Assembly (NCBI GenBank): GCA_963699545.1 | Contig: CAVOUE010000006.1 | Coordinates: forward strand, 406,068 to 470,067 | DNA length: 64,000 nt | From: Nitrospirota bacterium | Lineage (GTDB): Bacteria; Nitrospirota; Thermodesulfovibrionia; Thermodesulfovibrionales; UBA9159 | Direction of reading: 5' to 3' | Shown: piece after piece, positions 44,068-58,845 of the stretch | How positions within the stretch are numbered: the stretch's first letter is position 1 | How the letters are laid out: every line of letters begins with the position of its first letter | Notes under the pieces: generated by a model | What the model was told of the DNA's origin: nothing | The model's database searches: none | The model's input: the letters and a program-made list of their open reading frames with translations, nothing else | Translations under genes and position numbers: made by a program

Positions 44068-45724
44068 CTATCCTTTCCTTAATTCCTTAAACGCATTGAT
44101 CAAACCATTGGTCGACGAATCATGAGATGTCACCTGTTTCCCGTCTTTCAGTTCCGGGAGGACACGGTTTGCAAGCTGCTTCCCCAACTCCACACCCCAC
44201 TGGTCAAAGCTGAATATGTTCCAGATCACACCCTGGACGAAGATCTTGTGCTCATACATAGCTATCAGACCCCCCAACGTCCTGGGGGTGATTTTTCTGA
44301 CCAGGATTGAGTTGGTCGGTCTGTTCCCTTTGAAGACTTTGTAAGGAACAAGCCTCTTGATATCTTCGCTGCCGGCCCCTGTCATCTGCAATTCTTCCAC
44401 GACCTCCTTCTCCGACTTCCCCTTCATGAGGGCCTCTGCCTGGGCGAAGAAATTGGAGAGCAGGATTTCATGGTGCTCGCCCACGGGATTGTGAGAGATT
44501 GCGGGAGCGATAAAATCGCAGGGAATGAGTTTTGTCCCCTGATGGATGAGCTGGTAGAAGGCATGCTGTCCGTTCGTGCCGGGTTCTCCCCATATCACAG
44601 GTCCGGTCTGATGACCGACTTGACGACCATTCCGGTCAATATACTTCCCGTTGCTTTCCATATTGCCCTGTTGAAAATATGCGGCGAACCGGTGCAGGTA
44701 TTGATCATAGGGAAGTATGGCCTCGGTCTGGGCGCCAAAGAAATTGTTGTACCAGATCCCGATCAAGGCGAGAATTACCGGTATGTTTCTTTCATAGGGC
44801 GTTTCCCTGAAATGCATGTCCATGGCATGGGCGCCCTCAAGAAGTTCGACGAAATTTTCGAATCCGATTGTGCAGGCGATCGAGAGTCCGACAGATGACC
44901 AGAGTGAATACCTGCCTCCCACCCAATCCCAGAACCTGAACATATTCGCGGGGTCAATGCCGAATTTCTCAACCTCTCTCTCATTCGTGGAGATCTGCAA
45001 CGAAATGCTGCTTGATGAAGGATTCTTCCCCGGCCGACTCGAGAAACCACCCTCTTGCCGTGTGGGCATTGGTCATCGTCTCCTGGGTCGTAAAGGTCTT
45101 TGAGGCGATCATGAAAAGTGTGGTTTCTGGAGACAAACCCTTCAGGGTTTCTGTGATATGCGTCCCGTCGACGTTCGACACAAAATGGGGACGAAGGTGG
45201 GGTTTCCAGAAGGGTTTAAGGGCCTCTGTCACCATGACCGGCCCCAGATCAGAACCTCCAATGCCGATATTAACAAGGTCCGTTATTGCCTTTCCCGTGT
45301 AGCCTTTCCACTTCCCTGAAATGATCCTTTCAGAAAATTCTGACATCTGCCCCAAAACCGCATTCACCTCGGGCATTACATCTTTTCCGTCCAGATGAAT
45401 GGGGGTATTTGGCCGGTTCCTCAGGGCCACGTGAAGAACTGCGCGCTTTTCGGTCTCGTTGATTTTGTCTCCTGTAAACATACATTCCGTAGCATCTTTT
45501 ACCCTGCATTCCCTGGCAAGTCCAAAGAGGAGACGCATCGTTTCTTTCGTGACGATATTTTTCGAGTAGTCCACGAGCATATCTTCAAACTGAACGGAAA
45601 AAGCGGAGAATCTCCCTTTGTCCTGACGAAAGAAGTCCGTCATGGCACGGCCTTTCATCACCCGGTAGTGTTCTTTCAGTCTTTTCCAGGCTTTCTTTTT
45701 TGCCGGATTCACCTTCGGAAGCAT
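44068..45724 (-). CDS. pgi: Glucose-6-phosphate isomerase (frameshift near 44996)
   Basis: [52 protein letters not shown]. Confidence 0.96.
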
Positions 45725-45740
45725 CTCATGGATCTCCTGT

Positions 45741-56302: not shown

Positions 56303-56309
56303 TGTCTCA

Positions 56310-58845
56310 TCACGCCCCTGCGCCCGGTTTTATCTTCCAGATATGTTCGCAGTATTCCCGTATCGATCGGTCAGACGAAAACTTCCCCATGCGGGCCACA
56401 TTCAGGACCGACATGCGCACCCAGTTGTCCCGGTCGCGATATGCCGAACTCACCCGGTCCTGGCAGTCAATATAGGACTGATAGTCTGCCAGGAGAAGGA
56501 AAGGATCATGGTTCAGGAGGTTCTCCACCAGAGGCCTGAAGAGTTCCCTGTCACCCCAGGAGAAATAGCCTGACCGTATCTGATCGATCGCCTCCCTGAG
56601 GTCCGGGTTTGACTCGTAATAGCCCCGGGGATTATAACCCTTGACCTTCAGGTCCTCGACTTCCCCTGCGGTAAGCCCGAAGAGGAAGAAGTTCTCAGGA
56701 CCTACTTCTTCCCGGATCTCGACGTTCGCGCCGTCAAGGGTGCCTATCGTGAGGGCGCCGTTCATCGAGAATTTCATGTTGCCTGTTCCTGAGGCCTCTT
56801 TCCCTGCAGTCGATATCTGCTCCGAGAGGTCTGCGGCAGGATAGACATTATGCGCGTTCTTCACATTGAAGTCCGGGAAGAAGACGACCTTCAGCCTTCC
56901 GGCAACATCAGGATCATTGTTCACCACCTCGGCTACTGAATTGATCAGCTTGATGATCAGCTTTGCCATGAAGTATCCCGGCGCGGCCTTTCCTCCGAAG
57001 ATGAACGTGCGGGGGATAATCTCCTGTTTCGGGTCTTTCTTGATGCGATTGTAGAGCGTGATAATATGGAGCACGTTCAGGTGCTGCCGCTTGTACTCAT
57101 GGATCCGCTTCACCTGGATATCGAAGAGCGAATCGGGATCTGCAGCGATCCCGGTCCTTTCCTTGATGACCGCGGCAAGTCTGGACTTGTTGTCACGCTT
57201 GATCTTCCCCCATTCCTCCTGAAAGCCGGGATCATCGGCAAAGGGCTCGATCTTCCTGATCTCGTCTTCAAAATGCTTGATCCATCGGTCGCCGATCTTC
57301 CCTGTGAGCAGCTCCGTGAGTCCGGGATTGGACAGGGCTATCCAGCGCCGCGGGGTCACTCCGTTCGTCACGTTCACAAAACGATCGGGATAAAGGTCAT
57401 ACATGTCTTTGAGAACCGTCTTTGTAAGAAGATCGGAGTGCAGCGCCGCCACGCCGTTGATGCAATGGCTCCCCACCGAGGCAAGATGCGCCATGCGAAC
57501 ATACTTCTCCCCGCTTTCGTCGATGATGCGAAAGACGGGCAACCAGGCCGTCATCGCCGGGATATCTGAGGCGGACTTCGTCGAGAAATCTGCGGTTGAT
57601 CTCGTAGATGATCTCCAGATGCCGCGGGAGGCTGTCGCGGAAAAGCTGCAGGGGCCATTTTTCGAGCGCCTCGGGCAGAAGCGTATGGTTGGTGTACGCC
57701 ATTGTCTGTTGCGTAATCTTCCATGCCCTGTCCCAGTCCATCAGATGCTCGTCCACGAGGAGCCGCATAAGTTCTGCAACCGCGATTGAAGGATGGGTAT
57801 CATTCAGCTGGACGGCAAAGCTCTCATGGAATGTCTCAATGCGCTGCCCCCGCAATTAGATGGATGCGGATCATGTCCTGAAGAGAGCAGGAGACGAAGA
57901 AGTACTGCTGCGCAAGCCGGAGGGTCTTGCCGATTTCCGGCTCGTCGTTCGGGTAGAGGACCTTGCTCACGGTCTCGGAAATGACTTTTGCTTCAACCGC
58001 CTTATAGTAGTCGCCGATATTGAATGCCTGGAAGTCAAAGGACTCGACCGCCTCTGATTTCCAGAGCCTGAGCAGGTCCACCATATCGTCCCGGTAGGCC
58101 GGGACAGCGGTATCATAGGCGATGCCCTTGACCACACGGTGAGGGACCCAGCGGACCCTGAAGCGGCCTTTCTCGTCCCGGTATTGCTCTGTATAACCGC
58201 CGAAATTCACATAATAGGAGATCTCGGCCGCAGATCTCCCAAGGGTTGCCAAGGCGGAGCCACTTGTCGGTCTTTTCGACCTGCCATCCGTCGCGGATCT
58301 CCTGGTCAAAGATGCCGAACTCATACCGGATGCCGTACCCGATCGACCGGCACGCTCAACGATGCAAGAGAGTCCATGTAGCATGCGGCAAGCCTGCCTA
58401 GGCCGCCGTTTCCCAGCCCCGGTTCTTCCTCCTGCAGCAAGCAGATCGTCCAGGTCAAGGCCCAGTTCCTTCACCGCCTCCCTCATCTGGTCGGTAATGC
58501 CAAGATTCAGGAGATTGTTTCCCAGGTGAGGTCCCATCAGAAACTCCGCGGAGAGGTAGCATGCGATCTTTACCTTCGGTCGCCGCAATCCCTTGAGCGT
58601 ACGGACAAAGCGTTCCAGCATCCGGTCGCCGCACCGTATAGGCCACCGCCATATACCAGTCGTTCCGCGTGGCAAGCTCCGGGATGCGTCGCCTGAACAT
58701 AATAAAGGTTGTCGAGGATCGCCTGCCTCAGCGTCCCTGAGCTCGTTCCCGTCCGTATGTCGTCACTTTCCTGCCGAATCGATGCAACCTCAGCCGGATT
58801 GGTGTCTCTGCTGGAGTTCTCTCTCTTATCAGCTTTTTGTACCAT
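56310..58845 (-). CDS. glgP: Glycogen/starch phosphorylase (several frameshifts)
   Basis: [61 protein letters not shown]. Confidence 0.95.

Follow-up and report, generated by a model that had tools for sequence, protein, structure and literature searches.

A glycogen-to-pyruvate operon with a putative GOR-like glyceraldehyde 3-phosphate:ferredoxin oxidoreductase pair in a Nitrospirota bacterium

The stretch of DNA analysed here, termed the window, covers 64,000 nucleotides of a Nitrospirota genome (G000:C6:406068-470067) and represents the terminal 64 kb of a 470-kb contig, in an assembly of 13 contigs and 3.04 Mb with a completeness of 86.9% and a contamination of 5.1%. Pfam and NCBIfam searches of its open reading frame (ORF) pieces exposed a minus-strand operon of ten genes at 44068-58845, ordered glgP-glgX-fba-pfk-pyk-eno-gpmA-polyferredoxin-AOR-pgi (Table 1), in which a polyferredoxin (Fd) and a large subunit of the aldehyde:ferredoxin oxidoreductase (AOR) family form an adjacent pair. 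The Pfam matches follow one another as Phosphorylase, CBM_48/Alpha-amylase, class II F_bP_aldolase, PFK, PK, Enolase, His_Phos_1, 4Fe-4S, AFOR_N/AFOR_C and PGI, and NCBIfam names the CBM_48/Alpha-amylase gene GlgX and the His_Phos_1 gene dPGM. This order agrees with a preliminary description of the same DNA, as do the GTGA overlap of the eno stop and gpmA start, the ATGA overlap of the Fd stop and AOR start at 47552, and the spacer of exactly 16 nt between the AOR TAA (45743-45741) and the pgi ATG (45724), all read from coordinates and sequence. The operon opens with the glgP ATG at 58845, preceded by AGGAG, and closes with the pgi stop at 44068; the fba start near 54120 was taken from alignment to relatives. 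Neither gap nor pgk lies within the operon, as that description had also stated, and tpi is likewise missing from it (Pfam on ORF pieces and genome search). The ten genes had been described as co-directional and tightly packed; only pfk and gpmA are single open frames, and the other eight are spread over at least two frames as assembled, a feature that had been overlooked.

After frame correction, the operon proteins share 77-93% amino acid identity with those of relatives, including 79.8% for glgP (827 codons, 0 stops) and 77.9% for glgX (671 codons), both against locus L024, and 92.1% for fba against locus L017. The N-terminal glgX piece matches NCBIfam TIGR02100 GlgX at E 4e-91, under the full-length cut-off because the piece is a fragment. 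Promoter-like sites showed no excess (9 vs 9.4 in shuffles), terminator-like sites numbered 22 vs 13.8 in shuffles (sd 3.8) with none in a spacer of the minus-strand operon, and no Rfam match was observed at E up to 0.1 in window positions 43000-64000.

Table 1. Genes of the operon and split genes of its flank, in window positions.
Feature	Position	Strand	Evidence and state
glgP, glycogen/alpha-glucan phosphorylase	56310..58845	-	Pfam Phosphorylase, three ORF pieces, profile 83-713; 8 frameshifts
glgX, glycogen debranching enzyme	54211..56228	-	Pfam CBM_48 + Alpha-amylase; 6 frameshifts
fba, class II fructose-bisphosphate aldolase	53126..54120	-	Pfam F_bP_aldolase 6-167 + 185-269, two pieces; NCBIfam NF006628; 1-2 frameshifts (53533; possibly 54103)
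pfk, ATP-dependent 6-phosphofructokinase	51791..53083	-	Pfam PFK; NCBIfam NF005301 667.7 bits, cut-off 400; intact, 0 frameshifts
pyk, pyruvate kinase	50326..51763	-	Pfam PK + PK_C, two pieces; 1 frameshift (about 50697)
eno, enolase	48923..50266	-	Pfam Enolase_N/Enolase_C, three pieces; 3 frameshifts (50028, 49466, 49447)
gpmA, 2,3-bisphosphoglycerate-dependent phosphoglycerate mutase	48177..48926	-	NCBIfam NF010713 411 bits, cut-off 305; intact, 0 frameshifts
Polyferredoxin small subunit (WorS-like, ~151 aa)	47549..48006	-	Four [4Fe-4S] Cys motifs; 2 frameshifts (47849, 47812)
AOR/WOR-family large subunit (~603 aa read through)	45741..47552	-	Pfam AFOR_N + AFOR_C; 3 frameshifts (47419, 46497, 46484)
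pgi, glucose-6-phosphate isomerase	44068..45724	-	Pfam PGI 1-191 + 190-486, two pieces; 1 frameshift (44994)
aroK	1416-1926		Split at Pfam profile positions 95/96
aroC	2143-3440		Split at about profile position 40
mfd	12745-15868		Two overlapping ORFs
gspE	25705-26980		At least three frames

By its domains, the large subunit is assigned to the AOR/WOR superfamily of tungsten/molybdenum bis-pyranopterin aldehyde oxidoreductases, with AFOR_N (PF02730) matched at E 2.6e-50 and AFOR_C (PF01314) on two pieces (profile 2-133 and 136-347), and it is the sole AFOR_N match in the genome. Its frame-corrected sequence is 91.7% identical to that of L017 over 578 codons with 0 stops, and the large subunit of an intact orthologue measures 587 aa. 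The [4Fe-4S] ligands C285, C288, C292 and C488 are invariant in 5/5 orthologues and align to the Cys motif of Pyrococcus furiosus AOR (PfAOR), whose cluster cysteines we take to be C288/C291/C295/C494 (CxxCxxxC plus a distal Cys), and the motifs CAGCPVGC and VSCLFAR are legible in the AOR pieces of the window. T240, E318, Y430 and H446 of the L012 orthologue align to the PfAOR second-shell residues T243, E313, Y427 and H448 and are invariant in the orthologue alignment; PMC12096430 gives all four as kept in the clade of GOR, the bacterial enzyme that oxidises glyceraldehyde 3-phosphate (GAP), and only Thr and Glu as kept in its archaeal counterpart GAPOR. The Fd is 93.4% identical to the intact L017 homologue over 151 codons and holds four Cys motifs in about 151 aa, three of the form CxxCxxCxxxC and one CxxCxxxxCxxxC (read in L017 and L023, with the same peptides in the window pieces), and its N-terminus (MKILTTPRMERC...) shows no Tat-like or signal-like sequence. 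The best Protein Data Bank (PDB) match of the AOR is 1AOR (E 7.7e-48, residues 7-550, 166.9 bits), the 9 PDB matches include neither a GAPOR nor a GOR, and the identity to PfAOR-type paralogues is about 24%. Archaeal GAPOR was considered and rejected: the NCBIfam model NF040818 GAPOR_Arch scores 12.8 bits (E 0.027, residues 48-123 only) against a cut-off of 1300, so the AOR is not a GAPOR, and GAPOR is monomeric with the Tyr and His not conserved, whereas a WorS gene is attached here and both residues are kept. No GOR model occurs among the NCBIfam matches of the AOR, and the ESM Atlas offers only generic AOR names for this protein.

Among known systems, the pair resembles most closely the GOR of Caldicellulosiruptor bescii, an organism that reportedly uses two enzymes to oxidise GAP, to go by the title of the 2019 paper of Scott et al. 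The C. bescii GOR consists of WorL and WorS and is placed in WOR clade 20, Class II, in PMC13328260 and PMC12096430. As in that enzyme, a large AOR-family subunit is joined by a polyferredoxin with four [4Fe-4S] motifs in a bacterial, cytoplasmic setting, all four second-shell residues are kept (GOR residues as given in PMC12096430), and the genome encodes a conventional GAPDH as well, the pair being proposed to bypass GAPDH and PGK. Unlike in C. bescii, a thermophilic cellulolytic Firmicute, the pair occurs here in bacteria of Nitrospirota (Thermodesulfovibrionales-type) and Desulfobacterota type, the relatives of the window come from wetland and soil metagenome runs, and the window pair is embedded in a glycogen-to-pyruvate operon. 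The likeness is thus one of architecture, location, second-shell residues and coexistence with GAPDH, drawn from published descriptions of C. bescii GOR (CbGOR; Athe_0821). P. furiosus also retains GAPDH and PGK beside GAPOR, for the opposite direction. Archaeal GAPOR shares with the window AOR the superfamily and the proposed reaction (GAP to 3-phosphoglycerate, 3-PG, with ferredoxin as acceptor and no ATP), although it is assigned to WOR clade 23, Class I, as a monomer without WorS that keeps only Thr and Glu of the second-shell four (PMC12096430), in contrast to the window AOR with its four residues and attached WorS gene. The PfAOR structure belongs to the same fold family, and its cluster cysteines and second-shell residues align, yet it is distant by bit score and lacks an 8-residue insertion that follows the CxxCxxxC motif in the window AOR. 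The glycolytic context further differs from the detoxification or aromatic metabolism of AOR sensu stricto, FOR (1B25), WOR5/ASOR (6X6U), Aromatoleum aromaticum AOR (8C0Z) and BamB (4Z3W). GAPN carries out an NAD(P)-dependent one-step conversion of GAP to 3-PG without ATP gain, but it has an unrelated aldehyde-dehydrogenase fold and a pyridine nucleotide acceptor rather than ferredoxin.

The genomic context of the Fd-AOR pair was assessed across related loci. A profile of five orthologues retrieved 449 relatives in species-representative genomes, of which the best 80 loci were kept; the 84 loci scored comprise 79 of these (L040 was dropped, being on the same contig as L014) and 5 from the genomes of relatives, and each was searched by tblastn within 10 kb for glgP, glgX, GH13b, pgm, pgi, pfk, fba, gpmA, eno, pyk, gap, pgk and tpi. 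Fd adjoins AOR in 81/84 loci, and the three exceptions include two whose AOR comes within 230 nt of a contig end. One or more glycolysis or glycogen genes were observed in 47 loci (22/28 with Nitrospirota-type record titles and 25/56 others), against a chance expectation roughly estimated at 9% of 21.7-kb windows (~12 such loci in a 3.04-Mb genome). The most frequent neighbours were pyk (18 loci), glgP (17), pgm (15), eno (14), glgX (12), pfk (11), gpmA (11), fba (10) and pgi (10). The preliminary description had raised the question whether gap and pgk are excluded from clusters with this AOR, and here pgk and tpi were each found in 0/84 loci and gap in 6/84. Loci L023 and L024 share the order of the window from glgP to AOR, while other loci display different arrangements, such as eno-pgm-Fd-AOR-pgi-pyk, AOR-pgi-pyk, Fd-AOR-gpmA-pyk, Fd-AOR-glgP-glgX, glgP-Fd-AOR and pfk-gap-glgX-Fd-AOR, and the pair stands immediately after gpmA in the window, L019, L021-L024 and L088-L090. 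The hosts are Nitrospirota and Desulfobacterota-type metagenome-assembled genomes (MAGs). Across many anaerobic bacteria, the Fd-AOR pair thus recurs in the company of glycogen and glycolysis genes, whose order varies.

Further neighbours were also recorded. ackA occurs near the AOR in 6 of the 84 loci, pta in 5 and Hox-type hydrogenase subunits in 3-4, and Pfam identifies PGM, PTA+DRTGG, acetate kinase, a pyruvate formate-lyase (PFL)-like glycyl-radical enzyme and a Nuo51/HoxU/HoxY/NiFe hydrogenase set. In L017, pta-ackA lies between pyk and Fd. Directly beside Fd-AOR, at L017:13344-18014 and L090:4198-8837, lies a NiFe hydrogenase set of the Hox type, with Nuo51/2Fe-2S, HoxU-like, small and large subunits.

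The rest of the genome was searched for the steps missing from the operon, for paralogues and for cofactor supply. An intact, adjacent gap-pgk pair is located at C3:283222-285466, tpi lies on contig C7, and three PGM/PMM matches were detected, so that the earlier expectation of a supply of tpiA and phosphoglucomutase from elsewhere was borne out. Among this genome and 30 relatives, Gp_dh_N is present in 29/31 (the two without it are 77% and 79% complete) and PGK in 31/31, and the six genomes that encode this AOR type, the present one included, all have Gp_dh_N and PGK. As an intact gap-pgk pair is kept elsewhere, the AOR is to be read as a catabolic bypass and not as a replacement of GAPDH and PGK; the earlier claim that it stands in place of these two enzymes thus survives for the recurrent glycolytic context without pgk but not for the organism as a whole. 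The conserved gap-pgk pair presumably serves gluconeogenesis. A second, intact eno adjoins a DivIC gene (C7:77344-78621; the housekeeping eno-ftsB pair), and a second, intact gpmA-pyk is found on C10 (pyk at C10:55397-56830), indicating that the operon is an extra, catabolic set, in which the irreversible steps (GlgP, GlgX, Pfk, Pyk and the AOR pair) are joined by separate copies of several reversible ones. No second glgP, fba or AOR was found in the genome. GlgA, MalQ, a GH57 enzyme and two MoeA are also encoded. At C4:59368-61853, two intact TupA-like tungstate-binding genes in tandem are accompanied by a third, split one; the best NCBIfam match of the intact two is tung_bind_TupA at 249.7 and 167.7 bits, and all three score below the cut-off of 400. 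Of the genes that the preliminary description named as ones to look for, gap, pgk and tpi have thus been located, along with candidates for pgm, tungstate uptake and the molybdenum cofactor.

Taken together, we favour, with moderate confidence and from sequence and gene context, the reading that the pair is a GOR-like GAP:ferredoxin oxidoreductase within a glycogen-fermentation module. In the pathway so predicted, the products of presumably co-transcribed genes would act in succession: GlgP and GlgX would release glucose 1-phosphate by phosphorolysis and debranching of glycogen, Pgm encoded elsewhere would convert it to glucose 6-phosphate and Pgi this to fructose 6-phosphate, ATP-dependent Pfk would form fructose 1,6-bisphosphate at the cost of 1 ATP, and class II Fba would split it into two triose phosphates, with Tpi encoded elsewhere. 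The AOR, the pterin/[4Fe-4S] subunit with tungsten as its presumed metal, would then oxidise GAP directly to 3-PG with no ATP formed, passing two electrons per GAP through the four-cluster polyferredoxin to ferredoxin, after which GpmA, Eno and Pyk would convert 3-PG through 2-phosphoglycerate and phosphoenolpyruvate (PEP) to pyruvate, with 2 ATP per glucosyl unit. Each glucosyl unit would thus give a net +1 ATP together with 4 low-potential electrons, as calculated earlier, and glycogen may thereby act as a reserve of reduced ferredoxin. The pgm, pta-ackA and Hox-type NiFe hydrogenase neighbours in relatives suggest that the physiological role is probably the fermentation of endogenous glycogen to acetate, the electrons leaving as reduced ferredoxin or H2.

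Several observations weigh against the GOR-like assignment. GpmA is 2,3-bisphosphoglycerate-dependent and needs a primer derived from 1,3-bisphosphoglycerate, so the bypass would retain a need for some GAPDH or PGK activity. In 37/84 loci, glycolysis and glycogen genes were not observed within 10 kb; these loci include both cultured isolates (L057, Maridesulfovibrio sp. FT414, and L081, Desulfopila sp. IMCC35008). The six clusters mentioned above do contain gap. Since tpi is missing from the clusters just as pgk is, the lack of pgk carries less weight than it first seems to, and gap-pgk-tpi may simply be kept elsewhere for other reasons. As the 84 loci are drawn from related genomes, they do not count as independent samples; the argument is carried by the variety of gene orders and host groups. 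PMC13328260 reports the two-subunit (Class II) architecture in 40/92 WOR clades, so that this architecture is not specific to GOR, and the AOR clade may be a WOR clade other than that of CbGOR. Activity, expression or metal data were not found for any member of this AOR clade. If the clade does differ, a tentative alternative, to which we give about half the weight of the GOR-like reading, would be that a two-subunit WOR was recruited for GAP oxidation once more, independently, which would define a widespread and hitherto undescribed regulon for glycogen-to-ferredoxin fermentation in mesophilic Nitrospirota, Desulfobulbia, Syntrophobacteria and related anaerobes.

A second alternative, which we regard as unlikely, holds that the pair is a broad-specificity aldehyde:ferredoxin oxidoreductase that clears reactive aldehydes from sugar breakdown and is no pathway step, with glyceraldehyde, methylglyoxal-derived aldehydes and acetaldehyde from pyruvate among its possible substrates. 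Characterised AOR/WOR enzymes are mostly broad-range detoxifiers according to PMC13328260, the four second-shell residues typical of general AORs are all conserved here, and pta-ackA and the PFL-like gene near some loci would fit acetaldehyde or pyruvate chemistry, as would the 37 loci without a glycolytic neighbour fit a detoxifier. The commonest neighbours (gpmA, eno, pyk, pgm and glgP), however, surround the step from GAP to 3-PG and the entry of glycogen, the pair directly follows gpmA, whose product consumes 3-PG, in the loci listed above, the clusters hold every step of lower glycolysis except GAP oxidation with pgk in none of them, and the identity to PfAOR-type paralogues is low.

The state of the genes bears on whether the operon is functional. 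Frameshifts were counted in frameshift-tolerant alignments of the window DNA with intact proteins from its nearest relatives, and a total of 25 one-base shifts was observed in the operon (per gene as in Table 1, with one in fba), comprising 22 of +1 and 3 of -1; an extra insertion is possible at 54103 near the fba start, where the contigs of relatives lack one base. No in-frame stop occurs in 4671 aligned codons, and no deletion exceeds 1 nt. Over Fd-AOR, the window and L017 are 92.5% identical at the DNA level, the sole gaps being five single additional bases in the window. Several insertions lie outside homopolymers, such as the A at 47850, which stands between G and C. Related contigs from four metagenome runs, belonging to four studies, never have the extra base where they span 46484-96, 47420, 47850, 49447-65, 50023 and 54103. 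At 85-99% likeness, and from runs with small shares (0.04-0.13), these contigs represent relatives rather than the same strain and establish no more than that the additional bases are peculiar to this assembly; no RNA run was listed for the window. The ratio of nonsynonymous to synonymous substitution (dN/dS) against relatives is 0.143 for AOR, 0.136 for Fd, 0.111 for pyk, 0.093 for pgi and 0.087 for glgP among the broken genes, and 0.094 for pfk and 0.044 for gpmA among the intact ones. In the flank, consecutive parts of one Pfam profile fall in different ORFs for each of aroK, aroC, mfd and gspE (Table 1), indicating indel errors outside the operon too. Breaks are also found elsewhere in the genome: one TupA-like gene is split, an internal TGA interrupts a MoeA, and a pgi-like gene is spread over two frames.

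As genes of essential type in the flank are broken in the same way, in-frame stops are absent and dN/dS is low, the 25 frameshifts are very probably consensus errors of the assembly and not gene decay, and such indel errors probably lower the estimate of assembly completeness. Against this stands the density of the shifts, about 1.7/kb in the operon and at least 6 in the 44-kb flank (at least 0.14/kb), a roughly tenfold excess that a uniform error process does not explain, with the first (44994) and last (58685) shifts both just within the operon borders; a consensus from mixed populations sharing a conserved module is our guess at the cause. A statistic based on ORF-length tiling lacked the sensitivity to single out the operon. 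If the frameshifts were real, the operon would be a recently inactivated, decaying accessory copy, redundant with gap-pgk and the second eno, gpmA and pyk. This is improbable, slightly more so than a detoxifying role, even though the density excess is bounded by the operon, intact second copies of those three genes exist, the extra bases are missing from all related contigs compared, and an AOR that is closer to other genera than to a genome of its own genus, as detailed below, would fit a laterally acquired dispensable module. Bacterial gene decay is usually dominated by deletions, whereas insertions are in strong excess here and some, such as that at 47850, are not slippage-like; nonsense codons and larger deletions are lacking, dN/dS of the broken genes is as low as in the intact ones, aroK, aroC and mfd are essential yet similarly split, glgP, fba and AOR have no second copy to fall back on, and AORs of other long-read-style MAGs likewise carry multiple stops. 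These last are the AOR genes of loci L088, L092 and L035, with 14, 13 and 5 stops in single-frame translation; two of the three come from MFD-prefixed isolates, and damage of this type seems common in this data source.

The reverse direction, a reduction of 3-PG to GAP with reduced ferredoxin on an ATP-saving gluconeogenic route to glycogen, is very improbable, since the acid/aldehyde couple is very negative, the operon enzymes GlgP, GlgX, ATP-dependent Pfk and Pyk are catabolic and effectively irreversible, the operon has no fructose bisphosphatase, PEP synthase or glycogen synthase, and an intact gap-pgk pair is already available for gluconeogenesis, against which stand the GlgA encoded in the genome and the capacity of AOR-family enzymes to reduce acids with very low-potential donors (PMC9295118).

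The descent of the AOR was examined in a tree with frames corrected and with L088, L092 and L035 excluded on account of their stops. The window AOR sits on a short branch in a clade with the Nitrospirota MAG loci L012, L017, L018 and L019 (support 0.96-0.97), with 88-93% identity to these other genera, but shares only 69.5% identity with its counterpart in G002, a genome of the same genus, a pattern that two module lineages in the phylum, or a transfer, may account for. The cluster has a GC content of 0.560, in the top 1.7% of 577 windows. Composition was rejected as evidence of transfer, as the GC content at third codon positions of the intact operon genes (0.69-0.71) resembles that of other glycolytic genes (0.67-0.79), and it does not decide between the two possibilities.

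Around the operon, other genes of the window were also observed. Directly upstream of glgP lies orf517 (58984-60537, minus strand), a 517-aa frame with no Pfam or NCBIfam family (best E 0.12); orf517 and the flanking STAS and DUF1003 genes have no counterpart in the 84 loci and are thus outside the conserved module. A Mla-type operon (MlaE, ABC ATPase, MlaD and an auxiliary lipoprotein) lies beside the cluster at 39531-43167 on the minus strand, and the same Mla-type operon stands beside eno-pgm-Fd-AOR in a Thermodesulfovibrionales MAG (L034:2990-6506), which hints that this chromosomal neighbourhood is old in the order. Two subtilase genes with fervidolysin-like prodomains and fn3, together with a gene for a 1176-aa reprolysin-like metallopeptidase with fn3 and BACON, occupy 3427-12724 as a cluster of large proteases that are probably secreted, and a PIN_3 gene overlapping a DUF6364 gene at 37452-38113 on the minus strand resembles a toxin-antitoxin pair.

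The preliminary description knew of no earlier account of this operon, and none was found in a literature search on GOR or GAPOR with Nitrospirota, glycogen and sulfate reducers, a point on which the primary GOR papers may bear; a D. vulgaris Aor (DVU1179) is on record in connection with chlorate. For annotation, the locus is a caution: in a long-read-style MAG, gene calling can fail on nearly the whole of a coherent operon, which lowers completeness estimates and hides pathways. As PMC13328260 assigns a defined physiological role to only 5/92 WOR clades, the gene context provides a specific substrate prediction, GAP, for a large two-subunit WOR clade in environmentally abundant anaerobes. The separation of a catabolic operon with Pfk, Pyk, GlgP and the AOR pair from the gap-pgk pair suggests that glycolytic and gluconeogenic flux are cleanly divided at the genetic level. 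If the GOR-like reading is correct, ferredoxin-linked modified glycolysis would extend beyond hyperthermophilic archaea and one thermophilic Firmicute into sulfate-reducer-type bacteria and soil and wetland Nitrospirota, and would tie glycogen reserves to the supply of low-potential electrons. Should the less probable independent recruitment be true, glgP/glgX/pgm, upper and lower glycolysis, Fd-AOR, pta-ackA and the Hox hydrogenase would constitute a regulon, one more of the many role-less WOR clades would gain a physiological role, and respiring anaerobes could outlast periods that lack an electron acceptor through fermentation of internal glycogen to acetate and H2 or reduced ferredoxin.

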